Assembly: GCA_963796795.1 (NCBI GenBank)
Contig: CAWCNA010000013.1
Location: 11,571-75,570 of the forward strand
Reading direction: 5' to 3'
DNA from: Candidatus Adlerbacteria bacterium
GTDB lineage: Bacteria > Patescibacteriota > Minisyncoccia > Phycocordibacterales > SBAW01
Length of the DNA: 64,000 nt
Shown: positions 4,327 to 34,741 of the stretch, one piece after another
How positions within the stretch are numbered: the stretch's first letter is position 1
How the letters are laid out: every line of letters begins with the position of its first letter
Program-made: the position numbers and the translations under genes
The notes under the pieces: generated by a model
What the model was told of the DNA's origin: nothing
What the model saw: only the letters and a program-made list of their open reading frames with translations
Database searches by the model: none

Positions 4327-4331
4327 AGAAA

Positions 4332-9824: not shown

Positions 9825-9876
9825 GGTATAGTCTGACGTAAGATTTTTGAGCTTTGCTTTTAAGTTGCCGTTGGTG

Positions 9877-13626: not shown

Positions 13627-14587
13627 GCGTTGTCGAGTTCCCTGCTACAAACAGGTTGCCGCCGATGTAGGCGTCACTTGCTGTCTGGAGCACACCCGGG
13701 GCAGATGTTGCGACACCAACGCCCAAACCAACCGCAAAGTAACCACTGCCTGTCGTGCTTGCATTGCCGTTAACGATACTGTCGCCATGTGTATTGAAAC
13801 TGCCCACGTTCAATGCTCCGCTTATGGATGCATTGGTTGCAAATAAATTTGTCGTTGACGCCACCTGCGCAAAGAAGTTTGTCGTTGTTGCGTTGGAAAG
13901 AAGTGTATTGCCCGAGACTGAAAGTGTTCCGAGTGTTGTGGTTGCGGCGTTAAACGTGCCTCCAACGTTCGTGTTGCCTAGGACATCAAGGCTGCCAACG
14001 CTCCCATATGTTGCAAAAATGTTATCAGCCTTCGTATCACCGTTAAGTGTTGTGTTTGAAAGGTTATTTATAAGCTCAGGAAGAACAAAGTTCTGCAACG
14101 GGCTTTCGCGGCCGGGGTTTTCAAGGTTCGAAATCTGGATGGCAAACTTGTTGGAAAGGTCCCCGAGGCGCGCTGTGAGTTCGTCTTCAGAGATTCCACC
14201 AGACCCTACAGCCTGTTGCACAACCGTACGTTCAATGACCGGATAATTATTTACGATGGTAGGCGGTGGAGTCACAACGGGAACCGTTGGTACCGAAGCA
14301 GAACTGTTTCTGAGGAGAAGTCTGGCCGACCGAAGGGAGGAGATCCGAGGACTTCTCTGAAGAATTGTTCTGTGGAGGTACATCAGCAACTTTTGAAGTA
14401 TGTCCAAACAACGTTGCGAATATTCCTGACAAAAAGTTTGAAGTGCCTGTGACAGCTGGTGCGGTTGTGCCGAAGAAAGGTGTTTCAGCTGCAGAGACCG
14501 CAGCAAATGATGGTCCGCCAGCTGGCGGATTTGTATTAGGTACAAGCGTCGAAGCAAACACAAGCGAGCCGAGCAGCAGGATCGCAC
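13112..14587 (-). CDS. Giant surface protein paralog B, segment (real frame only about 13620-14320)
   Basis: 'SEDELTARLGDLSNKFAIQISNLENPGRESPLQNFVLPELINNLSN...' matches 'TEDELTTRLADLQNKFAVQISNLENPGRESPLENFALPELINNLSN' of the intact paralog. The ORF's own N- and C-terminal parts are out-of-frame junk. It is joined to the flanking ORFs by frameshifts. Confidence 0.55.
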   Translation of the reverse strand: MRSCCSARLCLLRRLYLIQIRQLADHHLLRSLQLKHLSSAQPHQLSQALQTFCQEYSQRCLDILQKLLMYLHRTILQRSPRISSLRSARLLLRNSSASVPTVPVVTPPPTIVNNYPVIERTVVQQAVGSGGISEDELTARLGDLSNKFAIQISNLENPGRESPLQNFVLPELINNLSNTTLNGDTKADNIFATYGSVGSLDVLGNTNVGGTFNAATTTLGTLSVSGNTLLSNATTTNFFAQVASTTNLFATNASISGALNVGSFNTHGDSIVNGNASTTGSGYFAVGLGVGVATSAPGVLQTASDAYIGGNLFVAGNSTTLGNSSSNTLVINSSIHSDIVPDQKHYVQSWFTIVFLEQRIRGHHYCQQHRRQQYANRRDTVGKLYDQFRQRIVGCRRCKHHLLPRQRSPQRVAGLELDRKNVCLQSAIVYPKCIIKRRQCCNVGFERFDGPDSRFVASCIFDRCLLLGSRSRRPHRHRHIDASIVGRYFCN

Positions 14588-14912
14588 CTGCCACCAGTCC
14601 TATAGGCGCACCGACAGAGACCTCCTTCGCGCGCAAAAAAATATTCTGCAAGGCAGTTTGCTGCTCACGCACGTTTTCGCGATATTCACTCGAAAGAGAT
14701 TTTGAAAGTTCAAGTCTGCGCGCCTCGCGCTCTGTTGCTTTTTGCTCAAGGTATGAAGAAAGCGATGTTGGGTCGACATACCACACGCCATCAACAAGTT
14801 TTCCTTGCACTGCCTGTCTGCGACAAAGCAACGCAACGTAGTCGTTGGTCTTTTTAAAATCGCGGGCTGCCGCGACAGAAGAAATATATGTTTTTGGAAT
14901 TTTCTCGCTCAT
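14247..14912 (-). CDS. Giant surface protein paralog B, N-terminal segment (cytoplasmic HTH-like domain plus TM anchor)
   Basis: Start placed at 'MSEKIPKTYISS' by analogy with 'MSPQKKIFS' of paralog A. 'DYVALLCRRQAVQGKLVDGVWYVDPTSL' is followed by TM 'VGAPIGLVAGAILLLGSLVFASTL' and 'TPFFGTTAPAV...NFLSGIFATLFG', all conserved with paralog A. The upstream part of ORF 14247..15089 looks non-coding. Confidence 0.65.
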   Translation of the reverse strand: MSEKIPKTYISSVAAARDFKKTNDYVALLCRRQAVQGKLVDGVWYVDPTSLSSYLEQKATEREARRLELSKSLSSEYRENVREQQTALQNIFLRAKEVSVGAPIGLVAGAILLLGSLVFASTLVPNTNPPAGGPSFAAVSAAETPFFGTTAPAVTGTSNFLSGIFATLFGHTSKVADVPPQNNSSEKSSDLLPSVGQTSPQKQFCFGTNGSRCDSTAYHRK

Positions 14913-15300
14913 CGTTTTTACAACGAGTTGAGAAGCGAACTGTCCAAGTGCTGTATGGTCGTATCGCCGGTTTGTGCGTACCTCGGCGAAGTAACCAAAT
15001 AAAGAAAGGGCAGTCCGCCAATCGACGGATGCCCTGTTGCTATAAAGTATATCCTTGTACCTGTTTTTAATGCATATACATATATGCACTCATATGGGGA
15101 TAAGAAATTTTAATGGAGGTCGGTCCTCCGCAAATTTGAAAAAATTGTATCAATCTTGAAACCCTAAAGCTATAGTTGACACACATCTCCAATAGATGCT
15201 GAATGTGTAAAAACACTATTTTCCGCGCATTACTTCTATCCGAGATTTGTTATATATCAACATATCTCGGATAAACAGATACAGAGGACCGACCTCGGTA
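14913..15300. promoter_or_regulatory. Upstream region of paralog B with a cluster of inverted repeats
   Basis: Hairpin GGAGG-tcggt-CCTCC at 15115..15129. A perfect 9-bp inverted repeat ATCCGAGAT/ATCTCGGAT at 15238..15272 with a 17-nt AT loop. GAGG-accga-CCTC at 15284..15296, which is the near reverse complement of the 15115 element. Palindrome TGCATAT.c.ATATGCA at 15071..15089. Confidence 0.4.
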
Positions 15301-17001
15301 TTATTGCTGGGTGCTGGTTGCGGCACCTGCCTGCGCAGGCAGGGACACTATAATAGTGCGGGTTGCAGTGCCTGTGTTCCCTGCCCCGTCGGTCGCACTA
15401 AAGAGGATGATATGGGTGCCTGGGGTGCTTGTATCGAGAGTAAATTGGGCTGGAGACGTGCTTGTCGCCCCGTCCAGAGACATGCTGTAGCCGATGTTTG
15501 GGCTTGATGTGCTGGTTACAGTAACGCCCGGATCTATATATGTATCACCAACATTGAGCTGTGCTGGATCGGCACCGATGAGAGTTATTGTCGGTGGAGT
15601 TGATGTGGCGGAACCCGAGGAGTCACCTCCTCCGGAGGAAACACCTCCGGTTCCTTGAGGTGTCGAAGTAGCAGTCCCGTTCAACAAATTATTAAGTTGT
15701 GTGCGCGTGACACATGTCTTGCCTGTTGCATCTGTGATGCAGAGTTGGTCGGTATCAACTTCTTTTGCAAATACTTTATCGAATACGCCGACGCTCGCGT
15801 ATATTGCCTTGCCCATCACTTCTACAACTTCGTTACCTATACTTTGTAGTACGGTTTTCAATCCATCACTTGCATTAGCAAATACTCCGGCCCATTCAGG
15901 AGTTGAGGTTGCGTTTGTCGAGGTAGCAGTCGTTAACTCAACAACAGAAGTCGTGCCGAGCAAGTTAAATGTATTTTGATTTATATTTGATGCCAAAATT
16001 TGGCCCGTGAGATTCAAGTTGCCATCTTCATCCAGCACTGCAATATTCTTGCCCAACTGGTTTTTAAATGTCAGCCCTTGTGGAGTATCAGGAGATTCTG
16101 CAATTCTGAAGTTGTTTGCAAACACTGCGTCACCAAAGAACTGGTCGCCTGTTGCGTTGTTATTAGAATTGAGGAGCATTGACGACGATGTAAGGGCGAG
16201 ACCAACCTGATACGCGGAGGTCGATGTGGAGAGTCCACCTGCTGGACTCCAGAAATACGTGTTCCCTGCTGTCAGCCCTGACAACCCTCCGACAATGCCA
16301 GTTGATGCAACTGTCACTGTGCCATTTGCACTTGCTGCATTTGTTGCCATACCAAGGACGGTAGGATTTGTAACAACACCAACAGACGCGTTTGGATAAT
16401 TATTGCCGTCGACAAACCCATAGACATAGTGTGTCGAGTCGAGATCTGCAATTGTTATGTAATTGTAATTACTAAGGGTGCTCGAAATAATATAAGAATT
16501 GTTCGGTGTGATGGTCGTGCCGGAGACCGTGGACGCCGAAGCTCGAACTTGTTTTAGCGATGGATCTAAGTACCCGACAATAAAGTTGGTGGAACTTAAC
16601 ACTGAAAGTGAAACGTAGGAGCCTGCGTTAATGTCGCTAGAAGTAGTGGTATTACCGGCAATTGTGGAAGGGCTTCCGCAGGAAACAGAAGTTCCCGAAA
16701 TTGTGCAGGCTGTTGCCCTAACTGCATATGGTATAGGAGGAGGACTGACATTGCTGTACGCCTGCAGATAGGCGACAACCAAAGCACTCGAAGAGAGAGA
16801 TGAAATAGAGAAGTAAGCCGGGGCATACCCGCCGCCACCGGCGTTCGTGGGAGTACCGCATGTAGGGGTAGTCCCCGAGACCGTACATGCAACGACTTTT
16901 GCTTGGTTGAGGGTGCCATCCCCGAAGGTCTCAGCGAAGCTCGATGAAGAGAGAGCCGTAACGGCAACGTTAGCGTCGGTGTTCTGAATTCGCGTCGACA
17001 T
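15301..17001 (-). CDS. Giant surface protein, 3'-most segment of the gene A array (FFGDAVFANNFRI domain and DUF5011-like C-terminus)
   Basis: 566-aa ORF ending 'TPPTITLIGADPAQLNVGDTYIDPGVTV...GTATRTIIV'. It continues ORF 16970..19156 across an apparent frameshift at ~16970-17001. Confidence 0.65.
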   Translation of the reverse strand: MSTRIQNTDANVAVTALSSSSFAETFGDGTLNQAKVVACTVSGTTPTCGTPTNAGGGGYAPAYFSISSLSSSALVVAYLQAYSNVSPPPIPYAVRATACTISGTSVSCGSPSTIAGNTTTSSDINAGSYVSLSVLSSTNFIVGYLDPSLKQVRASASTVSGTTITPNNSYIISSTLSNYNYITIADLDSTHYVYGFVDGNNYPNASVGVVTNPTVLGMATNAASANGTVTVASTGIVGGLSGLTAGNTYFWSPAGGLSTSTSAYQVGLALTSSSMLLNSNNNATGDQFFGDAVFANNFRIAESPDTPQGLTFKNQLGKNIAVLDEDGNLNLTGQILASNINQNTFNLLGTTSVVELTTATSTNATSTPEWAGVFANASDGLKTVLQSIGNEVVEVMGKAIYASVGVFDKVFAKEVDTDQLCITDATGKTCVTRTQLNNLLNGTATSTPQGTGGVSSGGGDSSGSATSTPPTITLIGADPAQLNVGDTYIDPGVTVTSTSSPNIGYSMSLDGATSTSPAQFTLDTSTPGTHIILFSATDGAGNTGTATRTIIVSLPAQAGAATSTQQ

Positions 17002-19156
17002 TTACCGTGCTACCCGCGGTAATCGTGGTGCCCGAGAGGGTACCCACCGTGGCATACGTACTATTAATCCCACCTGGGGTGTATCCGACAACAAACTTTG
17101 TGGCACTGAGCGCGGCCACAGAAACAATATCCTGTCCTGAAGATACCGTGCCCCCCATGCTTTGAGCGCTCCCGCACGTCGGAGTAGTCCCAGATATGGT
17201 GCACGCGAGGCTCGAGACCGTACCGCTTCCGCTGGCAGTATTGTTGTATGCAACTACGAAGCTCGTAGAGGATAGTGCTGCGAGAGAAACATCGGAGGAA
17301 GCGGAGGAGAGAAGAACTGTGGGAGTGCCGCAGACTACACTATTTGCCAATACATTACATACGGCCGCAGTAAGGAAATTAGAATTATTACTATCTCTGT
17401 ATGCCTCAACAAAACTTGTTGCAGAGAGCGCTGTCGCAGATGTGTATGCTGCGGATGCCGAATATGACAAGACGGTCGAAGAACCGACACCAGTGACCGT
17501 TCCGCCCGCGAGCGCATCATCTTTCCGAACTTTCCCATTAATGTACGCAACGATGTCACCAACATTAATCTGTGAACTCCCCGAATCCACCGTGTAATCC
17601 GCAGTCAAATTCTTGAGCTTGGCAGTCAACGCACCACTTGCATCAACCCTCAATACATTCGCACCAGTTGATGATGCGATGGCGAAGATATCACCAGAGC
17701 CAGGCGTGCCCTGAATGGAAAGTGCTGCAAGAGGTGAACTTGTCCCAACCCCAAAGAGCCCTGCCGCCGTGAGTGTGAGAGTAGAAGTTCCGACAGCATT
17801 GTTAGTACCAGAGAAGTATGTGAGTTGGCCCGTTGAGCCAATTGGGTTTGTGAGGCAGACGTTGTTGTAGAGCAAGCATCCGCCATTGAGTTGGATACCA
17901 TTCGCAAACGTCGATGTTGCAGTACCCGTAACATTGAGTGCAAATGCTTGCAGCCCTCCGGCGAACGTACTCGTCGAAAGATTCGTAACAATGAGATTCG
18001 TGAGAGTCGAAGTACCTGCACTGAGTGTACCTGCACCAACAATGTTGCCGAGGGAATCGATGGTGGTGGTAGCAGTTGCACCGAAGTAGGCTTTTTGAAC
18101 AACCGCAAACTGTGAAGTAGATGCAGTAGCGAAGTTAAAGGCACCGCCGACAGAGAAGCCTCCTGCGATGGTGAGCTGGCCACTGTTGCTGACACTAAAC
18201 ACCGACGCATAGCTTTGTGTACCTGTAGGTGAGCGCTTGAGCGAGAACGCATCACTCTGTCCACCAAGCTGGAAGTCCCATGCAGGGTAGGAGTTGTTGA
18301 TGAGTGAGCCAGTACCGGTGTCGTTTGAGGCAATGTTTAAGTCACCTGTGTTGGACGGTATATAGAAGGAGTATGGAATGGCAGCATTACCGTTTGCACC
18401 AGAGAGGTTCGCTAAGGTGAGGAGTGATGAATTACCAGAGGCATAGTTCCCTTCTACATCAAGTTTAGCCTTCGGTGCAGTAGTAGATGCAATACCAAGG
18501 CCAAGAGAACCACTGGTATTAAGGAAGATGTTGTTACTCCCCCAGTTGTTGGTGTTGAGTGCGGTGTTTAAGCTCACCGGTACCGTACAGGTGCCACTCT
18601 GGCCTGCCGTACATGCACCACCTGTGGACTTTACATACAAGAGGTCGAAGTCGCCTGCGTTGATTGGTGCACCCGAGACTGCAGAGTTTGTTTCAGCGAA
18701 GCCAAGGTCTCCCGCAATGACCTTGTTTGCATATATAGCAGAGAGGCGGTCGGTGGAGGAGCCGATTGCGAAGAGGTTGTCGCTGGTTGGGAAGATGTTG
18801 CCTGCGAGCGTACCTCCTGCAAGCAGTGTTCCATTTGAACTTGCAGATATGATTGAGGAAAGTGCTGATGCAAGTTGTGTATTTGTGATGTAGGTGCTGA
18901 GGGTACTGGTGGAGACAAACTGCGTGAAGTCAGGCAAGTCACTAAAGAGTGATGATGTTGAAACAAGGCCGGAGATATCTCCGAGTGTTGCGTAGTTGGA
19001 AAGGTCTGGAGTGGTTGAAGTTGGAAGTGCGGCGAGGGCAGAGGCAAGTGTTGAACTAGAGACAAGGCCTGAGATATCAGAAAAGGGTTGCGTAGCCTGA
19101 AAGATCCGGAGCAGTAAACACTGGTGTCGAGGTAGGTGCAATCTGGCTCCAGTCAC
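16970..19156 (-). CDS. Giant surface protein, tandem unit 1 ('LYVKSTGGACTAGQSGTC...FSLKRS' cassette and DSTHFVVAY-type repeats)
   Basis: 728-aa ORF. Its N-part 'FSDLPDFTQFVSTSTLSTYITNTQLASALSSI...' repeats the module that is read in frame inside ORF 22678..33462. Confidence 0.65.
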   Translation of the reverse strand: MTGARLHLPRHQCLLLRIFQATQPFSDISGLVSSSTLASALAALPTSTTPDLSNYATLGDISGLVSTSSLFSDLPDFTQFVSTSTLSTYITNTQLASALSSIISASSNGTLLAGGTLAGNIFPTSDNLFAIGSSTDRLSAIYANKVIAGDLGFAETNSAVSGAPINAGDFDLLYVKSTGGACTAGQSGTCTVPVSLNTALNTNNWGSNNIFLNTSGSLGLGIASTTAPKAKLDVEGNYASGNSSLLTLANLSGANGNAAIPYSFYIPSNTGDLNIASNDTGTGSLINNSYPAWDFQLGGQSDAFSLKRSPTGTQSYASVFSVSNSGQLTIAGGFSVGGAFNFATASTSQFAVVQKAYFGATATTTIDSLGNIVGAGTLSAGTSTLTNLIVTNLSTSTFAGGLQAFALNVTGTATSTFANGIQLNGGCLLYNNVCLTNPIGSTGQLTYFSGTNNAVGTSTLTLTAAGLFGVGTSSPLAALSIQGTPGSGDIFAIASSTGANVLRVDASGALTAKLKNLTADYTVDSGSSQINVGDIVAYINGKVRKDDALAGGTVTGVGSSTVLSYSASAAYTSATALSATSFVEAYRDSNNSNFLTAAVCNVLANSVVCGTPTVLLSSASSDVSLAALSSTSFVVAYNNTASGSGTVSSLACTISGTTPTCGSAQSMGGTVSSGQDIVSVAALSATKFVVGYTPGGINSTYATVGTLSGTTITAGSTVNVDANSEHRR

Positions 19157-20321
19157 TGATGCAGTTGTCTGTTCCTAAGCAAAGTACATTAGTACTCGTA
19201 GTGGAAGCGGTGAGCAGATCAGTAACAGTTGACGTTGCATTGATTTGATTAACGTTGGTGTTGTTGATGGTTGTTGTACCAGTCAAGAAAACATTTTGTG
19301 CAGAGATGTTCCCTCCTACGTTGAGATTACCGTCTTCATCAATGCTCATAATCTGCCTTCCCAACTGATTTTCAAAGTTGAGTGCGTTTGGAACCCCAGG
19401 GTTTTCAGTAATCCTGAAGTTGTTTGCAAACACTGCGTCACCGAAGAACTGATCACTCCCTGCTCCGTTGCTGGAGTTCAAGAGCATTGAAGTCGAAGTC
19501 AGCGCAATACCAACTTTATATGTTGATGAGGTAGTGGTGAGGCTGTTGCCGTTGAAATAATACGTCGAGCCGGCAGTGAGACCGGAAAGACCAGAAACAA
19601 TACCGTTCGACGCAACCGTCACGATGCCATTCGCGCTCGCGGCATTCGTGGCCATGCCAAGGTTGTTGGAGGAAGGAGTTTGAGAAGTGGAGACAACGGC
19701 GGCGGCGTAGTTTGTGCTGTCGCCCTGATACGCCACGACGAATGAGGTGGAGGAGAGGACGGCGACGGAGGTAAAGGCGGAGCTGACGGCGTTGAGAGCA
19801 GCGGGGGTGCCGGCGGTGATGGTGGTGCCAGAGACGGTGGCGACGACGGCGTTGGCGTAGCCTGTGTTGTTGCTCTCGATACCCCACCACGAATGAGGTG
19901 GAGGAGAGGGCAGCGACGGAGGTGTAGATGCCGGGGGCGTTGGTGAGGTCGACGAGGGAACCATGACCAGTGACGGAGGTGCCGGAGACGGTGGCGACGA
20001 CGGCGGTGACATGGGTACTGCCGTCCCTATACGCCACAACGAAGTGTGTGGAGTCGAGGGCGGCAACGGAGTCGTAGTTGGAGGTTTGCGAAGAGTTGAC
20101 GGTGGCAAAAGTGCCGGCAGTGATGGTGGTGCCGGAGACGGTGGCGACAACGGCGTCCGCGTAGAGGTTGCTATCCTGGTACGCCACCACGAACGACGTG
20201 GATGATAAGGCGGAGACGGAGGTGTAGGTGGAGGCGAGAGAGTTGAGGACGACTGGAGTGCCGGCGGTGATGGTGGTGCCAGAGACGGTGGCGACGACGG
20301 CGTTGGCGAAGCCTGAGGCAC
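19077..20321 (-). CDS. Giant surface protein, unit 2 3' segment (FFGDAVFANNFRITENPG domain; 5' half of the ORF is out of frame)
   Basis: C-terminal ~250 aa 'GYANAVVATVSGTTITAGTPAALNAV...FFGDAVFANNFRITENPGVPNALNFENQLGRQIMSIDEDGNLNVGG...FTAPDLSGYATLF' is real. The Pro-rich N-terminal part is alternate-frame junk. Confidence 0.5.
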   Translation of the reverse strand: MPQASPTPSSPPSLAPPSPPALQSSSTLSPPPTPPSPPYHPRRSWWRTRIATSTRTPLSPPSPAPPSLPALLPPSTLRKPPTTTPLPPSTPHTSLWRIGTAVPMSPPSSPPSPAPPSLVMVPSSTSPTPPASTPPSLPSPPPHSWWGIESNNTGYANAVVATVSGTTITAGTPAALNAVSSAFTSVAVLSSTSFVVAYQGDSTNYAAAVVSTSQTPSSNNLGMATNAASANGIVTVASNGIVSGLSGLTAGSTYYFNGNSLTTTSSTYKVGIALTSTSMLLNSSNGAGSDQFFGDAVFANNFRITENPGVPNALNFENQLGRQIMSIDEDGNLNVGGNISAQNVFLTGTTTINNTNVNQINATSTVTDLLTASTTSTNVLCLGTDNCISDWSQIAPTSTPVFTAPDLSGYATLF

Positions 20322-22227
20322 CCCGATACGCTACCACAAAGTGCGTGGAGTCGAGTGCGGCGGCGGATTCGTAGCCGGCGGTGACAGCATTGAGAGCAAC
20401 GGGGGTGCCGGCGGTGATGGTGGTGCCAGAGACGGTGGCGACGACGGCGTTGGCGAAATTTGAAGCACCCGCGTAGGCCACCACAAAGTGCGTGGAGTCG
20501 AGTGCGGCGACGGAGGTGTAGGAGGAGCTGACGGCGTTGATGGCGACGGGGGTGCCGTAGGTGATGGTGGTGCCAGAGACGGTGGCGACGACGGCTTCAG
20601 CAAAGCCTGTGCTTCTGTTCACATATGCCACGACGAATGAGGTGGAGGAGAGGGCGGCGGCGGAGGTGTAGTCGGAAGCAACGGCATTGGCGACGACGGG
20701 GGTGCCGGTGGTGATGGCGTTTTGCGCCTTCGTGGCTTTTCCGTTGATAAACGCCACGATGTTCCCGACATTGATCGCACTGCTCCCCGAATCCACCGTG
20801 TAGTCGGCGGTGAGTTGTTTCAGTTTTGCGGTGAGTGCACCTGTCGAATCAACTTTCAATACGTTCGCACCAGTTGATGACGCGACGTCAAAGATGTCAG
20901 TTGAGCCAGGTGTCCCCTGAATGGAGAGTGCTGCAAGTGGCGACGAGGTGCCGATGCCAAAGAATCCAGTAGCACTAAGTGTGAGCGTCGAAGTGCCAAC
21001 TTCATTGTTAGTGCTGGAGAAATATGGGATTTGGCCGGTTGTACCTACCGAAGGCGTAAGGCATTTGTTGTTGTAGAGCAAACACCCAGCATTGAGTTGG
21101 ATACCATTTGAGAAGGTTGATGTTGCAGTGCCGGTGACATTGAGTGCAAATGCTTGGAGCCCCCCAGCAAACGTACTCGTCGAGAGATTGGAGACAATGA
21201 GATTTGTGAGAGTTGAGGTGCCTGCACTAAGTGTTCCTGCACCAATGATATTACCTGCCGCGTCGATGGTGGTGGTTGCAGTGGCACCGAAGTAGGCGTT
21301 GTTGAAGACAGAGAATTGTGAGGTAGAAGCGTTGGTGAATTGCAACTGACCCGTTGCGAATGTCCCTCCGATTGAAAGGTTGCCTGGGATTGAAAGGTTG
21401 CCTGTATTACTAATGTTGAAGACTGACGTGTAAGCCTGCGTACCAGGAGCACTGCGCTTGAGCGAGAACGCATCACTCTGTCCACCAAGCTGGAAGTCCC
21501 ATGCTGGGTAGGAGTTGTTGATGAGTGAGCCAGTACCGGTGTCGTTTGAGGCAATGTTTAAGTCACCTGTGTTGGACGGTATATAGAAGGAGTATGGAAT
21601 GGCAGCATTACCGTTTGCACCAGAGAGGTTCGCTAAGGTGAGGAGTGATGAATTACCAGAGGCATAGTTCCCTTCTACATCAAGTTTAGCCTTCGGTGCA
21701 GTAGTAGATGCAATACCAAGGCCAAGAGAACCACTGGTATTAAGGAAGATGTTGTTACTCCCCCAGTTGTTGGTGTTGAGTGCGGTGTTTAAGCTCACCG
21801 GTACCGTACAGGTGCCACTCTGGCCTGCCGTACATGCACCACCTGTGGACTTTACATACAAGAGGTCGAAGTCGCCTGCGTTGATTGGTGCACCCGAGAC
21901 TGCAGAGTTTGTTTCAGCGAAGCCAAGGTCTCCCGCAATGACCTTGTTGGCGTAGATTGCTGAAAGGCGCTCTGTTGGAGTACCGAGTGTAAAGAGGTTG
22001 TCTCCTGCTGGGATGAGGTTACCTGAGAGTGTTCCTCCTGCAAGGAGTGTTCCGTTTGCACTTGATGATGCGATTGCAGAGAGTGCTGAGGCGAGTTGTG
22101 TGTTTGTGATGTAGGTGGAGAGGGTTGAGGTGGAGACGAAGCCAGCAAGTGATGGAAGGTCAGAAAAGCTTTGCGTATGCAGAGAGGTCAGGTGCAGTAA
22201 AAGGTGTTGATGTCGGGATTGCTGCAA
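19516..22227 (-). CDS. Giant surface protein, tandem unit 2 (cassette plus ~40-aa 'DSTHFVVAY' repeats; 3' end out of frame)
   Basis: 903-aa ORF. 'ALDSTHFVVAYRGASGFANAVVATVSGTTITAGTPV.LN' is repeated at least 6 times. The last ~130 codons (His/Arg-rich) are frameshift junk. Confidence 0.6.
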   Translation of the reverse strand: MQQSRHQHLLLHLTSLHTQSFSDLPSLAGFVSTSTLSTYITNTQLASALSAIASSSANGTLLAGGTLSGNLIPAGDNLFTLGTPTERLSAIYANKVIAGDLGFAETNSAVSGAPINAGDFDLLYVKSTGGACTAGQSGTCTVPVSLNTALNTNNWGSNNIFLNTSGSLGLGIASTTAPKAKLDVEGNYASGNSSLLTLANLSGANGNAAIPYSFYIPSNTGDLNIASNDTGTGSLINNSYPAWDFQLGGQSDAFSLKRSAPGTQAYTSVFNISNTGNLSIPGNLSIGGTFATGQLQFTNASTSQFSVFNNAYFGATATTTIDAAGNIIGAGTLSAGTSTLTNLIVSNLSTSTFAGGLQAFALNVTGTATSTFSNGIQLNAGCLLYNNKCLTPSVGTTGQIPYFSSTNNEVGTSTLTLSATGFFGIGTSSPLAALSIQGTPGSTDIFDVASSTGANVLKVDSTGALTAKLKQLTADYTVDSGSSAINVGNIVAFINGKATKAQNAITTGTPVVANAVASDYTSAAALSSTSFVVAYVNRSTGFAEAVVATVSGTTITYGTPVAINAVSSSYTSVAALDSTHFVVAYAGASNFANAVVATVSGTTITAGTPVALNAVTAGYESAAALDSTHFVVAYRGASGFANAVVATVSGTTITAGTPVVLNSLASTYTSVSALSSTSFVVAYQDSNLYADAVVATVSGTTITAGTFATVNSSQTSNYDSVAALDSTHFVVAYRDGSTHVTAVVATVSGTSVTGHGSLVDLTNAPGIYTSVAALSSTSFVVGYREQQHRLRQRRRRHRLWHHHHRRHPRCSQRRQLRLYLRRRPLLHLIRRGVSGRQHKLRRRRCLHFSNSFLQQPWHGHECREREWHRDGCVERYCFWSFRSHCRLDVLFQRQQPHHYLINI

Positions 22228-22708
22228 GTGCCGCAGTCAGTTGTGCGGTGAAGTTTGCTGTAAGGGATGCTGTCGCAGAAGCAAGCGCAGTATTTAATGT
22301 ACTTGTTGAGACGAACGAAGAAAGATCAGGGAATGTAACCGGAGTAGTAGTTGCCATAGTTGGCCATGCATTTCGGCAATCACCGTTCAAGCACAGTGTG
22401 CTTGTAGTTGTGGTCCCTGCAGTGAGCAGATCAGTAACAGTTGACGTTGCGTTGATTTGATCAATATTGGTGTTGCTGATGGTTGTCGTTCCAGTTAGAA
22501 AGACATTTTGTGCAGAGATGTTCCCTCCCACATTAAGATTGCCATCTTCATCGATGCTCAAGATCTGCCTGCCGAGCTGGTTTTCAAAGTTGAGTGCATT
22601 CGGCAACCCCGGATTTTCTGTAATTCTGAAGTTGTTGGCGAAGACCGCGTCACCGAAGAATTGGTCTGTGGCAGAACTTACTCCCCCATTGCCCGAGTTG
22701 AGAAGCAT
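22160..22708 (-). CDS. FFGDAVFANNFRITENPG-domain segment, probable continuation of ORF 22678..33462 via frameshift
   Basis: 182-aa ORF overlapping the stop of the 3594-aa ORF by 31 nt. It encodes the domain that follows the repeat region in every paralog and ends 'FTAPDLSAYAKLF'. Confidence 0.5.
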   Translation of the reverse strand: MLLNSGNGGVSSATDQFFGDAVFANNFRITENPGLPNALNFENQLGRQILSIDEDGNLNVGGNISAQNVFLTGTTTISNTNIDQINATSTVTDLLTAGTTTTSTLCLNGDCRNAWPTMATTTPVTFPDLSSFVSTSTLNTALASATASLTANFTAQLTAALAAIPTSTPFTAPDLSAYAKLF

Positions 22709-25700
22709 CGAAGTGGTGGTGAGGGCGATGCCGACTTTGTAGGACTGTACGGTAGTAGTGAGGCCAGTTGTGCCGAAGTAGTACGTACTTCCCCTGTGAG
22801 ACCAGACAATCCAGTCACAATACCGTTTGATGCAACGGTCACTGTGTTGTTGGTGGTCGTCGTGGCATTCGTTGCCATGCCGAGGATGTTGGGGGAAGTG
22901 ACGAGTGGTAACGTGCCGACGACGGCGGTGGCCGCGAAGGGCGCATTAGTAACGTTCTGATACGCCACCGCGAAGTGAGTGGAGTCGAAGGCGGCGACGG
23001 AGGTGTAGAGGGAGCCAACGCCGTTGAGGATGACAGGCGTACTTGCGGTAATAGTAGTGCCGGAGACCGAAGAGACAACGGCGCCGATAAAATTACTGCT
23101 GCTGATATTTTTATACGCCACCGCGAAGTGAGTGGAGTCGAGGGCGGCGACGGAGACGTTGCTGGTGCCGATAGAGTTAAGGGCAGTGGGTGTTCCAGCA
23201 GTGATGGTAGTACCGGAGACGGTGCTGACGACGGCGGCGTCGCCACCATTGGTACCATCTCCATACGCAACGACGAAGTGAGTGGAGTCGAGTTTGGCGG
23301 CGGAGTCGTAGTTGGAGAGGACAGCATTGAGGACGATGGGGGTGCCGACAGTGATGGTGGTGCCGGAGACGGAGGAGGCAACGGCGTTGGCAAAAGTTGT
23401 AGAAGAATTCCGATACCCCACCACGAAGTGCGTGGAGTCGAGGGCGGCGACGGATTCGTAGTCGGAAGGGACAGCATTGAGGGCGATGGGGGTGCCGGCA
23501 GTGATGGTGGTGCCAGAGACGGAGGAGGCAACGGCGTTGGCAAAAGTTGTAACAGAATTTTGATATGCCACCACGAAGTGCGTGGAGTCGAGGGCGGCGG
23601 CAGAGATCGGGTAACCAGCGGAGTAGGTGGCGTTTACGGTAACGGCCGAGCCGGGGGTAATGGTGGTGCCTCCCGAAACGGTGCTGACAACTGCGGAGAC
23701 GTAGTAAGGCGTGGCTTCAATATACGCCACCACAAAGTGGGTAGAGTCGAGCGCGGCGACGGATACCTCGTTAAGAGCGTTGGAGGTGATAAGAACAGGA
23801 GTGCCGGGAGTAATTGTGCTACCAGATACGGAGGAAACGACCGAGTAGACGTAGCCGGTACTGCCATCATTATACGCCGTTACGAAATGTGTGGAGTCTA
23901 GGGCAGCGGCGGAGATGTTTGTGGAGTTGGTAGAATTGAGAGCAACAGGAGTTCCCGCGCTAGGAATAGTGCCAGTTGTATTAACAACTTTCGTTGCCTT
24001 CCCATTGATGTAAGAAACAATATCACCAACATTAATCTGTGCACTCCCTGAATCAACAACATAGTCAGCAGTCAAATTCTTGAGCTTTGCAGTGAGTGCA
24101 CCAGTAGCATCAACTTTGAGAACGTTTGCACCTGTTGATGAAGCAAGGTCGAAGATATCAGTTGAGCCAGGTGTTCCCTGTATAGAGAGAGTTGCAAGTG
24201 GTGAAGTCGTACCGATGCCAAAGAATCCAGCAGCGCTGAGTGTAAGAGTGGATGTACCAACTGCAGTGTTCGTACCAGAGAAGTATGTGAGTTGGCCAGT
24301 TGTGCCTTGCGGAGTAGTGAGGCAGGTGCCGTTGTACTGGAAGCAACCACCAGTAATGGAGATACCGCTTGCAAACGTACTCGTTGAAAGATTCGTGACA
24401 ATGAGATTTGAGAGGGTTGAGGTGCCTGCACTAAGCGTACCTGCACCAACAATGTTGCCTGCCGCGTCGATGGTGGTGGTTGCAGTTGCACCGAAGTAGG
24501 CTTTCTGGAAGATGGAGAGCTGTGAGGTAGAAGCGTTGGTGAATTGCAACTGACCCGTTGCGAATGTCCCTCCGATTGAAAGGTTGCCTGGGATTGAAAG
24601 GTTGCCTGTATTACTAATGTTGAAGACTGACGCATAGCTCTGCGTACCAGGAGCACTGCGCTTGAGTGAGAACGCATCACTCTGCCCACCAAGCTGGAAG
24701 TCCCATGCAGAGTAGGAGTTGTTGATGAGTGAACCAGTACCTGTGTCGTTTGAGGCAATGTTTAAGTCGCCTGTGTTGGACGGTATATAGAAGGAGTATG
24801 GAATGGCGGCATTGCCGTTTGCACCAGAGAGGTTAGCTAAGGTGAGGAGTGATGAATTACCAGACGCATAGTTCCCTTCTACATCAAGCTTTGCCTTAGG
24901 TGCAGTTGTTGATGCAATACCAAGGCCAAGTGAACCTGATGTATTGAGGTAGATGTTGTTACTTCCCCAGTTGTTGGAGTTGAGGGCGGTGTTGAGGTTG
25001 ATTGGAACAGTGTGAGTAGTACCGCCAGTTGAGGTGACATACAAAGAGACAACATCACCGGGTACAAGTGGTGCACCCGATACTGCAGAGTTTGTTTCAG
25101 TAAAGGTGAGGTCGCCTGCATTAACATTTTTTGCAAATACATCAGTGAAGCGGTTTGTTGCAGTACCAAGCGTAAAGAGATTGTCGCCTGCTGGCACTAG
25201 GCTACCGTCCAGAGTGCCGCCTGCAAGAAGTGTTCCATTTGCACTTGATGATGCAATTGCAGAGAGTGCTGATGCAAGCTGAGTGCCCGTGATGTAGGTG
25301 GAGAGGGTTGAACTTGAAACAAACTGGGTGAAGTCAGGGAGAGAAGCGAAGAATGAGGAGGTTGCGAGGGCGAGTGCGTTGTTAAATGTGCTTGTGGAAA
25401 CAAAACCCGAAAGATCGATGGGTTGGCTCGATGATGCTGTGGTGGTACCGAGCTGATCAAAACTATTAATGCAGGTGCCGCCAAGGCACAGTGCAGTAGT
25501 GGTTGTGGTCGCTGCGGTGAGAGTGCCGGTTGTTGTTGTTGAAGCAGTGAGTGTATCTGCCACTACCCCATTAAAGAGCCCTGTCGTTGCGTATAGTGCA
25601 TGGTCGAATACGTGGACTATTGGGTCGGTCAGTGATGCGAGCGCACCTCGGACAAGGCCACTCGATGCTGCAAATGCGCCCGACCATGGTGTTGCAGGCG

Positions 25701-28700
25701 TCGATGTTGCCGAGGTGGAAGTGGTAAGGTCATTTACACTCGTTGTTGCGAGTAACGAATCAATGTGTGTCGAGAGCACATTAACTTGTGCAATAAAACT
25801 GGTGAACAAATTCGAAATTGTATCACTCACTGAAGGCGTCGAGCTTGCATCACTTTGTGTGCTGCTTGCCGATGAGCCGTTTAAGAAACGATTTGTTATT
25901 GCTTGAATAAGGCCGCCAACAAAATCGAACGCATCTGTCGTTGTTGCAGTCGGCTGCGCGAGCAATTGCTGTCCCACCGCCGAGGCATTCGTCCCTTTTT
26001 GAAGATTCAAAAATACTTCTATCGTTGTGCCGGTTGAACTTGCCGTAAATGCCTCAAGCGCATTTCCAATTGACGGGTCGAGCGGGCCCGCTTTCATACC
26101 AACACCCGGCACTGACGAAATAGTTATTGGGTCGCCAATTGCGATGGGGCCGTTTTCAAGCGAGACCTTTGTTGGCACACGGCCCGACAGCGCCACTTCC
26201 CGCTGCCCGCTTGTGTCGGTAGGTTGTGCAAGCACAAGCCCTGGGTCTGTTGAGATAACACCTGCGAGGATATTTGCCTCTCCTTCCGTAGCGCGCGTTA
26301 CATTCACCGGAGTTGATGTATCAAACGCGACGATATCGCCGGCCGCTATAGAAGAGTCGAGTACTGGGTAGTATTCGGCGAGGTCGGCACCGCCGTTTGT
26401 GAGATAGCGCACAATAACAATACCCGAACCGCCCGTACCCGAGCCGGTATTCCATCCGCCATTTGGAGCCCAGTACGAACATCCGCCGCCGCCGCCGCCG
26501 GTGTTTGCTATCGCATTCGGAACTGCACTTCCTTGCGTGGTTCCGTTAACCCCAGCGGAGTATGAAGAATAGCTGTAATAGGATGTTGTGCCGCAGCCAC
26601 GGCCGCCGCCGGCAAATCCATCGCCTGCGCGCTCGCTCGAGTTACCGCTACCGCCGCCGCCGCCTGCGTATGCAACCGACGAACCGGTGATGGAACTCAC
26701 GTATCCCGCACCGCCGTTGCCACCTGTCGCACCACTACTGCCGCTAATACCCTGGCCGCCTGCACCTCCGCCGCCTGCACCAGTCCAACTTACGGTGCTA
26801 GCGCCGCCGGCATTTCCATACCCATTTGTTTGCGTAGATGCACCTGCAGCACCGCCGCCTTGTGCCGCGCCGCCGCCCGAACCGCCGCTACCTGCGGCGG
26901 TTGCACTCCCAGTCGAGGCGCCGCCGCCGCCGCCAAGTGCTGTGTAGGTACCGAAGACGGAACTTTGGCCATTATTACCAACGCCAATGGTGACACTTGG
27001 AACGGCAGCACCGCCGTTACCAACAGTAACCGTATAGGCGCCGGGAGTTACGGGAACAATGGTGTCAATAACGCCGCCGCCGCCGCCGCCGCCGTTTGCG
27101 TTTGTCGTATTGTTATTGCCGCCCGAGCCACCGCCGCCGACAACGAGCACTTCCACGTTTGCACCCGTTGCGGCAGAAGAAACGGTAAATGTGCCACTTG
27201 TTGTGAAAGTCTGGATAGTATAGAGACCGCTCGTTGTCACCGTGCCACCGGATGCACTCACCTGGCCGGTTGGAGTTGGAGTTATATCTGCGACACTTGT
27301 CGAAGGATACGAGCGACCCGGACCCCACATTATGCGCACCGCGCCCGAGCCACCATTGCCACCGCCAAACGATGTGCCGCCACCGCCACCGCCACCGCCG
27401 TATGCACCACCATATATAGTACCGTTTGCACTTTGGCTACTACTTGGCTCGCCGAAGGCACCGTTCTGGCCGCCCGAACCACCACCACCGCCACCACCGG
27501 TCCCTAATGTACAGCCACTCACACCGTCAGAGCCTTGCCCCAAAATGCCAACGCCGCCGCCGCCGCCCGAACCGTACGTAGAAGAATATGAGCACGGGCC
27601 GCCGCCGCCGCCCGACCCAGTTTGTGCTGCAACACTGTTACCATCTGCACCGTGGCCTGCATATCCGCCTGCGCCACCCGCATCATAGGTGGTGCTTGTA
27701 TTACCACCGCGGCCGCCGCCGTCGCCGGTAAAACCGCCACCCGAATTTACAGTTGATGCCGTTGACCCCGAACCTCCTTGCCCCGCACCATAGCCAGCAA
27801 CAGTAGCCGTGCTTACGAAATAAGAATTGTTACCGTTCGTGGGCGAAGTACTGTACGTGCCGCCCGCACCGACCACCACGGTATAGGTCTGGCCCGGTAC
27901 CACGGTAATATTATTTTTATATCCGAGGCCGCCGCCCGCACCGCCATGGTTCGACCAGGACGACGAACCGCCGCCGCCGCCGCCGACTGCAACCACGCTG
28001 ATGCTTGTGACGCCCGCTGGTGCCGTCCACGAATAGGTGCCGGGGGCAGTGTAGGCTTGCTGGCCTGGTGCGGGAATAGTTGTAAGGCTAAATGTTGCGA
28101 TGGTCGGGCCTACTGTTAGTGTTGAAGTTAAGGTAACGGAATAAATACTCGAGGACGTCATACTCACTCGCACATATTGATTATTGAGTACAGTACCCGG
28201 CGAACTGGTCCAATTTTGGACGACAGACGCACACGCGCTGTCACTGCACACTTGGTATTGGGGCGATCCAGAGCCACTCACCGAAATTGCTACAGGAATG
28301 TTTATGCCCGTAATCTGCTGAGTCGTCGACGTTGCAACGCTAGACAATTGAACAAGGCTGCCTGCGGTTTGATCGGTTGTGAGTGTAGAAGGAAATGAGC
28401 GCCCACTGCCCCATATAATGCGCACGGCACCCGAGCCGCCTGCGCCGCCGCCAACAGTTGTACCAGGGCCACCGCCACCGCCACCGTATGCGCCGCCTGT
28501 GATTGTTCCGTTCGTACTTTGGTTACTATTTGGCTCTCCATCAGCTCCATTTGCACCACCCGAACCTCCGCGGCCGCCTTCCAAACCGGCACCTGAGGTA
28601 CCTGCCACCCCACTTGTACCTTGGCCCAAAATACCAACACCGCCGCCGGCAGAAGTGCCGTAAGTGCTCGAATAGTAATACCCGCCGCCGCCACCACCAC

Positions 28701-31700
28701 CTGAGCCGTTGAATCCGCTGCCTACACCGGCTCCGTTGCCACCATTTCCGGCGTAGCCGCCTGCGCCGCCGCCGCTTTGGTAGTTGGGAGCATTACCTCC
28801 TGCGCCGCCGCCGTCGCCGACATAGCCGCCGCCGGATGAGTTGTTATTCGCACAACCAGTTGTGCCTGTCCCAGCGTTACCTCCGCCGCATCCTTCAACT
28901 GTTGCTGTCGAATTAAAATATGAACTGCCTCCAATACCCCCCACAGATGCTGTGGTACCTCCTGCACCAACCACAACGGTATACGTCTGGCCCGGTACCA
29001 CAGTAATATTATTTTTATATCCGAGGCCGCCGCCTGAACCTGCTGGATTCGCCCATGTTTGCGAACCGCCGCCACCGCCGCCGACTGCAACCACACTCAC
29101 GCTTGTCACGCCGGCTGGTGCTGTCCAGCTATAGGTGCCGGGGGCAGTGTAGGCTTGCTGGCCTGTAACAGCTGAATTACTAAATGAGAGAGGGTTAGGC
29201 GTTCCAAGGCCTGTGCCAACTTGCCATGTTGCACTGCCATCGCCTGCCCACACCGTCACGGTGCTTGTTGCAAGGTTGGTTGCAAACGTTGTAGTGCGTA
29301 ACTGCAATGTCTGGCCGCTTGAGATATATCCTGCCGTCTCCCATGCGCTACCATTAATGCTGAACTGCGGATCGCCGTCGCCAATAATACGAACAGGAAC
29401 GGCGCCATCAAAGTTGGTGAGCGTATCGATAGCCGACGATGTTGCGGCACTCAACTGCGCTTGTGTCGTAGACGCAAAGGTAAACGTAGCAGGAATAATT
29501 GTCGGATTATTTATCGGCGCCCATGTCGTGGTGCCGCCCGTATTTGTGCATCCTTCAAAATTAGATGTTGCTTGATTGAATCTAAAAATACCGAGTTGCG
29601 CCGTAGTGCACGTTGCGGAAGAATTTCCTACTCGTATATTTCCGGCAACATCGAGCGTTGTCACTGCTGTTGTTGTTCCAACACCAACATTTCCGTTTGG
29701 CGATATAAACAATGTTGAAGTGCCTAACGCTTTGTTAGTTCCTGAAAGATATGCGACTTGGCCTTGAGTACCCGAAAGGCTTCCTAAACACTGGCCCTGA
29801 ACGGAGACACAGCCAGTTGTTACATTAATCGCACTGGCTTGTATGCCCGCAGAAAAGGTTGAGGTCGCGTTGTCTATCAAGTAGATGGAATTTGTTCCAA
29901 CATGGAGTTGGCCTTTTATATCGACGTTGCCAGTGAAGGTCGATGAGGCAGCACCACTGTTTGCTACGTAGAGCGGTCCATTAACAGCGAGGGTCGCTGA
30001 TGGAGTGGATGTGCCGATGCCGACCGAACCCGTACTCGTTACAACAAATGAAGGATAGGTAAGCGGCCCTGTCGAGGTTGCGATAAAGAAATTATTGCCG
30101 CCGTTTTGCAACACATCCGTTCCCGCAAACCAATTGCCGAGGGCGGCTGCAGTATTTCCTCCCCCCGCAAATGCAATGGCAGTCGCAAATGAATTAAGGT
30201 CGGTATTATCGATTTGCAAACCATAGCGCAAGTCCCCAGTAGCGCGCCCGTTGCCAAGTACCACAAGCGGGCCGCCAGGGGTCGACGTTCCGATACCTAT
30301 GCGGCCGCTCAACAGGAACGAATTGCCGAGGTTCGTATTAAGCGTGGTGTACCCGAGCCCCACAGGGCCCGACGCGGACACGTACAACCCAGATGAGTTG
30401 CCCGGCGCTATCTGGATGTCATGGAAGTTTCCACCCAGAGGCGCTGTCGTGGTGAGTTTTAATATATTTGATATGAACGAGAGATTTCCATCTTCATACG
30501 TAGACGGGCTTCCAACATTCCAAATATTTATACCTGCGGGGCCAAAGTTGCCTGAAAGGAAGCGCGACGTAGAAGAGCCAAGGAGCGAGGTGTTGTCGGA
30601 CGCCGGCGTAATACTTCCGCCTACGTTAATACTGCCGTTTGTATTTATAAAAAGCGACGACGTGCCCATTGCCGTGTTCGTGCCAGAGAAATATGCAACT
30701 TGTCCCGGCGTGCCAATAAGTGCCGGACTCGACGTTGCAATAAGTTTTCCGCTTGCATCAACTGCAATAAACGAGCCTGCGGGAAGCCCGAGCGATGAAA
30801 GTGTCAGTGTGCTCGTTGCTGTGATGGCTCCGCCGAAGAATGCAGAACCACTCGTGTATTGATTGCCTTCCACTGCAAGCGTTGTTGATGGCGATGTCGT
30901 ACCAATCCCAACATTGCCATTGTCTGCAATGGTCATGCGCTGGAGGCTATTTGTAAAAAAATTGAGGAAGTTACCGTCAGTTGCCGTAATGTACGTTGTC
31001 TGTGCAGCGTTGATAACACCCCCCAGGCCTTGCCATACGCTATTGTCACCAAAACCTTCAAACTGATGCGTGGTTGTGTTGTAGCGAATTTGTCCCGTTA
31101 AATCTTCTGCGGGGCGCTGTGCTGATGTACCAACCGGCAAGTGCAGCGCGTCAGTTGCAAAAATATCAAGAGAAGATGCTGGGGTTGAAGTGCCTATACC
31201 AATCCTTCCACCCGACCCAACTTCCAAATAACTCGCCCCTGTTGACGACGCAATGCGGAGAAGATCTGCAGTTTGTCCTGCCAAACCTTTCAAATCGAGT
31301 GTCACAACATTGCCGGTATTGTTCGACGCATTTTGTATAAATACAGGTTGGTTGAATGAGAAGTTCTTTGTGGAAGAATTCCATCCGAGTACGGCATTCG
31401 GTACTACGTTGCCGCGGAAGAAGATGAGGTTGGCGTCTTCTGCATCTGCACTTACGTTGTCAGAGTTGATTGTGAAGTCGGAGCTTTGTGTGCCTCCAAT
31501 CTGGGTGTTGCTTGCAACGATGTTGTTGGCGTTAATGGTGCCGACGTAGACATTTCGCCAGAAGAACGAGGGCGAACCGAGATCATATTGGATATTTTGA
31601 TCAGGCACGATGCTCGAATTTATTGATGAGTTGATAGTGAGAGTGTTTGAAGATGAGTTGCCAAGCGTTGTTGAGTTTCCGGCTACGAATAAGTTTCCAC

Positions 31701-33881: not shown

Positions 33882-34664
33882 TTACTGTTGGCCGTTTTGA
33901 CAGTTTCCAAAAATGAAGCACAGTGTCTTTTCTTGCGAATATGAGACGCTTGCCGTCTGCCCTTTCTGCACCGTTACCGTTGTATCCAAGCCCAATGACC
34001 CGAAAAAGGTAAATGCCAAAACTACGGCTCCTAAAGCCGTTACTCCTGTAACTGCTAGCGCCGTTACAAAAGGATTTCTTTTTTGTACGCGTCTTTCTTC
34101 TACTATCACTACCGGCTTCTCTGCGGGCGCAACATATATCGCCGCCGCAGGCACCGTTCTCGGTATATCGTTTGTTCGTTTTTGTATAGCAGGAAACAAC
34201 GGGCCCGAATCCGAGATATAGGTAAGCCCCGTTTTTTTTATCGGCACACTCCGAACAGGCTCTGAAATAAATACTTCTTCTTTTCGAATCGGGACAACAT
34301 ACTCGGTCGGAGCAGGAACAGGCTTGGCCGAAACGTTGGTAGGCACGACGGTGCCGGACATAGGAGAATTTTCAACAGGAAATTCTCCGCGTTGAGGCGA
34401 GCTTGGTTCCTGCGCAGGTACATATGTTTTTGCGACTATCTGTACTGGGGTAGCCGAGGGAGCAGGCGATATGTAGGTCTTGCTCTCCTTGTTGAGGTAG
34501 TCGGCAAACGAGCGTTCTTCCACGTACCATGCCCGGCCCACCTTGGTACCCAAAATCTTGCCTCCACGGATAAGCTGGCCGATATAATCCGAATGGTACT
34601 TGTTTTCCTTGGCAATACGTTTAGACGAGATGTATCGCTTCCCCGAGATTTCTAGTTCATCCAT
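33882..34664 (-). CDS. Small paralog of the giant-protein N-terminal module (excisionase-like HTH plus single TM), 260 aa
   Basis: Start placed at 'MDELEISGKRYISSKRIAKENKYHSDYIGQLIRGGKILGTKVGRAWYVEERSFADYL', which shares the motif with both giant genes. Pro/Val-rich linker, then TM 'FVTALAVTGVTALGAVVLAFTFFGSLGL' and a ~40-aa tail. Confidence 0.6.
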   Translation of the reverse strand: MDELEISGKRYISSKRIAKENKYHSDYIGQLIRGGKILGTKVGRAWYVEERSFADYLNKESKTYISPAPSATPVQIVAKTYVPAQEPSSPQRGEFPVENSPMSGTVVPTNVSAKPVPAPTEYVVPIRKEEVFISEPVRSVPIKKTGLTYISDSGPLFPAIQKRTNDIPRTVPAAAIYVAPAEKPVVIVEERRVQKRNPFVTALAVTGVTALGAVVLAFTFFGSLGLDTTVTVQKGQTASVSYSQEKTLCFIFGNCQNGQQ

Positions 34665-34741
34665 TTGCCTACAGTATATACATATAATAAAAACCCCGCT
34701 AAGCGGGGTGTGCAAAACTATGCAAGGCTAAGCCTTGCATG

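Follow-up and report, generated by a model that had tools for sequence, protein, structure and literature searches.

The 64,000-nucleotide stretch of DNA analyzed here (hereafter the window) belongs to a Patescibacteria (Paceibacteria-like) bacterium and carries, on its minus strand, a giant gene (15301–33462) that contains three tandem units of ~3.2 kb. Our analysis indicates that these units probably arose by an old tandem triplication of a module of ~1,070 amino acids (aa) and were later modified by gene-conversion tracts, and that the gene is translated throughout, the breaks in its reading frame most likely being errors. As assembled, the gene consists of six open segments, which give a protein of ~6,050 aa when five 1-nucleotide (nt) frame changes are bridged. 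A hydrophobic helix, visible by sequence near the N terminus (aa 106–127; window 33082–33147), is followed by three Gly_rich_2 domains (PF21722), the three ~1,070-aa units, and a C-terminal bacterial-surface Ig-like domain (PF16403). The Gly_rich_2 domains, located upstream of the units, and the Ig-like domain were the only Pfam matches in the gene. This architecture suggests that the product is a membrane-anchored, fibre-like cell-surface protein with an adhesin-like role.

An initial annotation of this DNA had described a three-unit tandem array, ~3.2 kb per unit, inside a giant minus-strand gene, with a cassette, DSTHFVVAY repeats, and a further domain in every unit. Self-comparison (self-BLAST) recovered the three tandem copies and, together with a MAFFT alignment, placed them at ~15.7–25.5 kb on the minus strand, with ~1,070 codons each; the cassette, DSTHF-type repeats, and FFGDAVFAN are present in all three. 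In the corrected translation, the cassette motif NNWGSNNI falls at aa 2830, 3897, and 4970, and FFGDAVFAN at aa 3601, 4671, and 5772. The register offset is 3206–3221 nt between units 1 and 2 and 3204 nt between units 2 and 3. The predicted order within a module is an S/T-rich linker, a “tail-fibre-like” cassette, fibrous GIGT-type segments, a seven-bladed β-propeller, a head domain with FFGDAVFANNFRI, and a Cys motif. The gene and its parts are as follows, the units being delimited by alignment and corrected translation.

15301–33462, minus strand: putative giant surface-fibre gene, from open reading frame (ORF) tiling, corrected translation, and Pfam.
22162–25479, minus strand: unit 3, the most 5′ in the gene; cassette core 24655–25131, propeller array ~22885–24042, head (FFGDAVFAN) domain ~22385–22884 with the motif at 22634–22660; its S/T-rich DLSxY linker extends to the junction at 22160–22163.
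19079–22161, minus strand: unit 2; cassette core 21451–21948, propeller array ~19662–20781, head (FFGDAVFAN) domain ~19173–19661 with the motif at 19422–19448.
15730–19078, minus strand: unit 1, the most 3′; cassette core 18230–18727, degenerate seven-blade array ~16357–17575, FFGDAVFAN at 16114–16140.
15301–15729, minus strand: Ig-like tail (Pfam PF16403), adjoining unit 1.

The triplication had initially been called recent, a dating that the divergence of the units contradicts. A self-comparison of 9–35 kb gave 82% identity over 1.4 kb for units 1 and 2, 84% over 0.96 kb for units 2 and 3, and 74% for units 1 and 3. Outside the near-identical tract described below, the units are only 70–86% identical. 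Codon-based counts over whole units gave the following proportions of synonymous (pS) and nonsynonymous (pN) differences.

Units 1 and 2: pS 0.525, pN 0.186.
Units 1 and 3: pS 0.579, pN 0.213.
Units 2 and 3: pS 0.458, pN 0.171.

These counts correspond to synonymous divergence (dS) of 0.7–1.1, with synonymous sites near saturation, and to a ratio of nonsynonymous to synonymous divergence (dN/dS) of ~0.25 between units. Since the units are 70–86% identical overall, with dS of 0.7–1.1, the triplication is old. For units 1 and 2, which lie wholly downstream of frame breaks, dN/dS is ~0.24, and open frames of 697–763 codons have been kept. Purifying selection has acted on all three copies, which have therefore been translated.

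Against this diverged background, one part of the cassette is almost identical between units 1 and 2, and a second, less similar patch links units 2 and 3:

18233–18727, minus strand: conversion tract, unit 1 copy; 165 codons, from NKVIAGDLGFAET to SDAFSLKRS, with 1 mismatch in 495 nt relative to 21454–21948.
21454–21948, minus strand: conversion tract, unit 2 copy, the counterpart of 18233–18727.
24658–25131, minus strand: unit 3 counterpart of the tract; pS 0.37–0.38, pN 0.078, the differences being mostly at third codon positions.
21167–21730, minus strand: older conversion patch of units 2 and 3 (counterpart 24371–24934); identity 88–96%, pS 0.215.

The sole mismatch in the tract (18284 A versus 21505 T) is synonymous (CCT/CCA), and it is followed by a perfect run of 443 nt (18285–18727). 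Hence, units 1 and 2 show 1 synonymous difference in 122 synonymous sites, a pS of 0.008 versus 0.62 in the flanks; the same codons compared with unit 3 give a pS of 0.374 and a pN of 0.078. The probability of at most one synonymous difference in 122 sites is 2e-23 to 3e-49, depending on whether the unit 3 pS (0.374) or the flank pS (0.62) is taken as the expectation, and chance is thus excluded as the cause. Identity drops abruptly at both borders of the tract, and a codon-by-codon view upstream of it shows an ordinary mix of changes. In the three-way alignment, units 1 and 2 form a mosaic, being ~100% identical in the tract, 70–86% in the adjacent cassette and fibre parts, and 40–55% in the repeat arrays. 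The initial annotation had paired 18241–18740 with 21461–21960; the near-identity is real, but the second coordinate is off by one, such that the pairing as written (offset 3220) gives 379 mismatches, whereas offset 3221 (18241–18740 versus 21462–21961) gives 6, of which 5 lie within the final 13 nt. Its figure of about 90% for a third copy was a fair one, given that 24658–25131 is ~94% identical to the tract over the first ~280 nt and ~85% over its whole length.

The nearest pair of units shifts along the module: units 1 and 2 are closest in the tract, and units 2 and 3 are closest at 21167–21730, in part of which units 1 and 2 are only 48–80% identical. Because the patch has diverged sequence on both sides, it points to conversion and not to a single unequal crossover or a recent duplication. 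Gene conversion had been named at the outset as an alternative, and the sharp borders and the contrast in pS between tract and flanks bear it out. Rapid surface variation, proposed in the initial annotation, is not supported; the patch makes the most conserved domain uniform, without a diversifying effect. Targeting by a diversity-generating retroelement was considered and rejected, as the tract copies differ at one site and the substitution spectrum of the unit 2/3 patch is mixed.

The course of events that we propose begins with a tandem triplication, long ago, of the ~1,070-aa module, after which all three copies would have remained under purifying selection. Homologous recombination between the tandem copies would then have moved short tracts while leaving the copy number unchanged. 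An older event of this kind would link units 2 and 3, and the latest would have brought units 1 and 2 to identity over 495 nt of the cassette. The cassette may be converted recurrently because it is the most conserved part of the module, where strand invasion would find the longest stretches of identity. With a corrected spacing of 3,219 nt (1,073 codons), the 443-nt perfect repeat would also lend itself to the in-frame removal or addition of a whole module.

Continuity of the ORF had been doubted in the initial annotation, and aptly so, as five frame breaks interrupt it from 22.8 down to 16.98 kb:

22795–22797, minus strand: −1 break; ACAGGGGAAGT with G4, where the GLTAGSTYY reading of the paralogues implies G5.
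22160–22168 (~22161), minus strand: +1 break at the unit 3/unit 2 junction; CTT TTC TGA.
19871–19873, minus strand: +1 break in a propeller blade of unit 2; TATCGAGAGC, not a homopolymer.
19077–19085 (~19078), minus strand: +1 break at the unit 2/unit 1 junction; the identical 9-mer CTT TTC TGA.
16983–16987 (~16985), minus strand: +1 break in the blade array of unit 1; …AATTCAGAACACC….

Three of these five breaks lie in short homopolymer runs (G4 once, T4 twice). A break in the neighboring paralogous gene shows A3 where its counterpart has A2. Past both junction 9-mers the protein continues in the +1 frame, and the bases surrounding the 9-mer differ between the two junctions. Homologous junctions are in frame (…YALLSNIPD…; PDLSGYALLSNIPDVSSFVSTS in the Saccharibacteria genome L002 and DLSGYATLGELSS in the homologue P0003) and have exactly one residue at the position where CTTTCT would encode Ser. 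Since the homologues keep one residue there, in frame, the window junction looks like CTTTCT with one extra T. In addition, subtracting the two +1 shifts between units 1 and 2 from the tract period restores whole codons (3221 − 2 = 3219 = 3 × 1073), and the period of units 2 and 3, which spans one +1 and one −1 shift, is already a whole number of codons (3204 = 3 × 1068). Separate genes at the unit junctions were considered and ruled out, because homologues read through in frame.

Similar damage is found elsewhere in the window. The SecA gene (39911–42429, minus strand) is divided into ~10 frame segments by ~9 frame changes, seven of them +1; its SecA_DEAD domain breaks off at model position 156 in one ORF and resumes at 161 in the next frame, and homopolymers of 4 nt or more occur in all of the overlap zones. 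Either the consensus is locally poor or SecA is a pseudogene, and this bears on the trust to be placed in all ORFs of the contig. Because SecA is broken in the same way, dN/dS downstream of the breaks is well below 1, and the ORFs of relatives are intact, the breaks in the giant gene are probably errors. The five frame changes are not a designed feature and most likely go back to errors (indels) in the consensus, failing which they would be very recent mutations.

Relatives with the same cassette were sought by scanning genome and metagenome collections with a cassette profile. These scans found no close strain; the relatives are few and patescibacterial, and the best of them share 53–57% aa identity. 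The closest have uninterrupted giant ORFs of 4,063, 2,918, and 4,577 aa. Four other Patescibacteria records have giant ORFs with two to three cassette-bearing modules. In two of these, both with an intact giant ORF, part of the module is repeated exactly: L002, a metagenome-assembled genome (MAG) of Saccharibacteria, has an 866-nt direct repeat (4257–5122 and 6327–7192; period 2070 nt), and L003, a Portnoybacteria MAG, has a 766-nt direct repeat (6471–7236 and 10089–10854; period 3618 nt). Both exact repeats cover the cassette, and the module flanks are only ~68–80% identical. The L002 repeat ends in …DAFSIQRS, the same domain border as that of the window tract (…DAFSLKRS). The inter-module stretch of highest similarity overlaps a cassette copy in L001 and the matched cassette in L004. 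The relatives are mostly short-read MAGs, in which assembler bubble-merging may make repeats look more exact than they are, although it would leave the mosaic intact. Cassette-focused conversion is a trait of the family. Junctions are in frame and free of stops in L002 (twice), P0003, P0005, and P0019.

In a syntenic but more distant relative, an ENA metagenome scaffold, the neighbor of GAPDH (L011, 2–4525) is the C-terminal end of a giant gene with different modules, namely a segment resembling PA14, FSxDGTKMYV repeats, and a Peptidase_S74 chaperone; only the Ig-like tail is common with the window. This shows that the giant-gene locus turns over quickly between lineages.

Several observations weigh against the interpretation of an old triplication with later conversion in a gene translated throughout. 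The breaks at 19872 and 16985 do not lie in homopolymers. No breaks occur in 10.8 kb of the giant gene (22.8–33.5 kb) and they are dense in SecA, such that a simple error model is not fully explanatory. Both junctions share the 9-mer CTTTTCTGA, and a real inherited frameshift is therefore possible. The exactness of the tract may be exaggerated by bubble-merging or polishing, and the copy number of three is that of the assembly and is unverified. Neither the cassette nor the whole unit has a sequence match in Pfam, NCBIfam, PHROG, or PDB, and an AlphaFold model of the cassette, built from a six-sequence alignment, failed (predicted local distance difference test, pLDDT, of 35) and was not used. 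The proposed surface location and function have domain resemblance as their sole basis.

The most novel of the alternatives, which we consider unlikely, is that the exact patches are not incidental. In independent Patescibacteria lineages it is this ~165-aa cassette that stays most similar from module to module of a giant protein (495 nt here, 866 nt in L002, 766 nt in L003, and the most similar inter-module stretch in L001 and L004). Sequence-identical cassettes could be favored by selection, for example because they bind a single partner or keep register in a multimeric fibre; alternatively, the identical patches could serve as recombination handles by which the cells gain or lose whole 1,073-aa, propeller-bearing modules. 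In the latter case, the locus would show variation in length or valency far above the known scale of Periscope repeats.

Somewhat less probable, and in our view rather unlikely, is an artefact of assembly or polishing, in which cassette copies that are only similar were merged, or additional units were collapsed such that the true number is not three. Frame errors are demonstrable in this assembly (SecA with ~9 splits, a flippase-like gene with 1), the giant-gene breaks are located in repeated parts, and the 443-nt exact repeat is longer than short reads. Other MAGs assembled from short reads also contain exact patches, of 766–866 nt, and an artefact common to all these assemblies could be the cause. 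However, a two-copy repeat of the form A-R-B-R-C can be traversed in one way only, and a mis-join is thus not expected. Merging could, moreover, have occurred only between copies much closer to each other than their flanks are, which leaves the mosaic signal in place; one real difference (18284) was kept, and four further genome or metagenome records, deposited independently, show a like mosaic.

It is also unlikely, and more so than an artefact, that the gene is truly truncated, with only the first ~3,770 aa being made and units 2 and 1 acting as silent donor cassettes in the style of pilE/pilS, vlsE, or MgPa. Such a scheme fits the stop codons that follow both junctions at an identical 9-mer, the existence of conversion tracts between units, and the deposited annotation, in which separate proteins of 903 and 728 aa appear. 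The ORFs of the window are singletons in protein cluster tables. A dN/dS of ~0.24 between units 1 and 2 and open frames of 697–763 codons are, however, unexpected for long-silent DNA. The latest conversion joins the two supposedly silent units, and does so in a conserved and not a variable domain. Homologues are continuous ORFs, and SecA is broken likewise.

Programmed +1 frameshifting, or stop and restart, at CUU UUC UGA in each junction would yield nested proteins with one, two, or three modules. The prfB frameshift site is CUU UGA. The window site resembles it, the 9-mer is identical at both junctions, a stop directly follows a U-rich, slippery-looking site, and the downstream units are under purifying selection. 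Nevertheless, we consider this mechanism highly improbable: the L002 and P0003 junctions are in frame, with the one residue between L and D/N/E that CTTTCT without the extra T would encode; three more breaks lie inside domains at unrelated sequences; many other frameshifts occur in the window; and tRNA-Phe would re-pair poorly when slipping from UUC to UCU. A recent tandem triplication, with the near-identical stretch as a remnant of original identity, would fit the tandem units, their identical domain order, and one stretch of 99.8% identity, but it has next to no probability given a pS of 0.46–0.62 outside the patch in units that are 70–86% identical, the abrupt fall of identity on both sides of the tract, and nearest pairs that differ by segment, which a single recent duplication could not produce.

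The content of the modules gives some indication of what the giant protein may do. The cassette is a conserved region of 165 aa, and a cassette profile search of a word-indexed protein database returned only four proteins. One relative, P0003, bears the source name “tail fiber domain-containing protein” and has Peptidase_S74 (E 3.4e-9) just upstream of the linker and cassette. Peptidase_S74 is also found in the cassette relative P0012, as well as in L011. In P0018, a 31-aa End_tail_spike motif (PF12219) at the start of the cassette scores above the Pfam cut-off, and this is the only homologue to reach the cut-off. In the window itself, the cassette gave no PF12219 match at E ≤ 10, and no window piece searched had a Pfam match to Peptidase_S74 (PF13884). 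The FFGDAVFAN domain sits in place of the S74 chaperone, with no detectable homology. The idea that it is a divergent Peptidase_S74 was rejected, as hhalign aligned only the trailing Cys motif (probability 92%).

The DSTHFVVAY repeat, of ~50 aa, matched 4,503 clusters at E ≤ 1e-3 and 2,759 at E ≤ 1e-10 (50%-identity clusters), and no Pfam family was found for it; it is a candidate for a new, widespread, and unannotated repeat family. Arrays of this repeat lie at 19662–20781, 22885–24042, 16357–17575, and 8700–9800. The unit 3 array (22798–24090) was modeled with AlphaFold from a 34-sequence alignment and gave seven four-stranded blades with a pLDDT of 85.2 and a predicted template modeling (TM) score of 0.82. 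Foldseek searches with this propeller model hit 441 PDB chains at E ≤ 1e-3; the matches listed were mostly β-propellers, among them many sialidases and also fucose lectins. The best TM-scores were obtained for seven-bladed Photorhabdus lectins and Sec12, at 9–16% identity, which is a resemblance at the fold level only. Taken with the cassette and fibrous segments, the model points to each unit being a large multi-domain module that carries one propeller on a fibre-like scaffold, and this propeller module may have an adhesin or lectin-like role.

Upstream of the units, the three tandem Gly_rich_2 (PF21722) domains lie at 26790–29170 (minus strand) inside the giant ORF with a period of ~1,090 nt, and the stretches 27857–28067 and 28955–29165 are 86% identical. 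Directly downstream of the giant gene is a second, shorter paralogous giant gene (7587–15089, minus strand), which has a similar N terminus, a region 75% identical to 30815–31806, one DSTHF array, FFGDAVFANDFRI, and an Ig-like tail as in the giant gene. It contains three frame changes (~14300, 13555, and 9880). The C-terminal part of unit 1 is closer to the tail of this paralogous gene than to units 2 and 3. An N-terminal segment of ~60 aa (…SSKRIAKEN…YIGQLIRGGKI.G.KVGR.WYV…), followed by a hydrophobic helix, occurs at 33882–34715, 33150–33462, and 14700–14960 (minus strand). Judged from its sequence, this would be a cytoplasmic leader and anchor common to three neighboring genes; the segment had no Pfam match in the giant ORF, where it was searched. 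At 47594–48851 (plus strand) there are two overlapping ORFs, the second of which aligns with Polysacc_synt (flippase) profiles over their C-terminal part alone, suggesting that this flippase-like gene is also split by a frameshift.

Known repeat-bearing surface proteins include the Periscope proteins and others (SasG/Aap, Rib/alpha C, Sgo_0707, Esp, and CdrA), and for the Periscope class it has been proposed that tandem repeats with high DNA identity allow recombination within the gene and hence changes in length (PMC8201768). This class is the closest concept for the window gene, which matches it only in part. Common to both are a large protein, in the present case putatively at the surface, and tandem folded units; the window gene has a 443-nt perfect repeat and, after correction, whole-codon spacing. 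Unlike in Periscope proteins, there are only three units, and these are multi-domain modules of ~1,070 aa compared with single stalk domains of ~80–130 aa. High identity does not extend over the whole repeat here, being confined to 495 nt in units 1 and 2 and ~560 nt, at 90–96%, in units 2 and 3. The predicted anchor is an N-terminal hydrophobic helix, and the source is a Patescibacteria MAG.

Other resemblances are likewise partial. The modeled β-propeller, at the fold level, and the relatives with Peptidase_S74 (PF13884) or End_tail_spike (PF12219) recall the endosialidase-type tail spikes and fibres of phages and the “tail fiber domain-containing proteins” annotated in Candidatus Paceibacterota, and the Cys motif after the chaperone position is likewise common to both sides (hhalign, 92%). 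Unlike endosialidase-type fibres, the window protein has FFGDAVFAN in place of S74, its propeller match is generic (9–16%), and it would be a cellular, membrane-anchored protein and not part of a virion. The non-reciprocal tract between diverged borders and the mosaic tree topologies along the unit are as in gene conversion between tandem paralogues. In contrast to the silent-cassette systems (pilE/pilS, vlsE, and MgPa), all copies appear to be translated within one ORF, the converted segment is a conserved one, and there is no sign here of an expression site or of directional diversification. Unlike in a prfB-type frameshift, the shift site and stop are not conserved in homologues.

To our knowledge, the giant surface proteins of Patescibacteria are almost entirely uncharacterised. 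The present locus indicates a protein built from very large, propeller-bearing modules that evolve in concert through conversion focused on one cassette, which makes the cassette a candidate region for function and the locus a candidate for variation in module number. Surveys based on annotation would miss this ~6,050-aa protein, as it is split into six ORFs, probably by consensus errors. The lifestyle of Patescibacteria is believed to involve attachment to other microbes, and the only member that is genetically tractable needs adhesins to grow as an epibiont (PMC10633639). For repetitive surface-protein genes such as this one, gene conversion is an ordinary evolutionary route.

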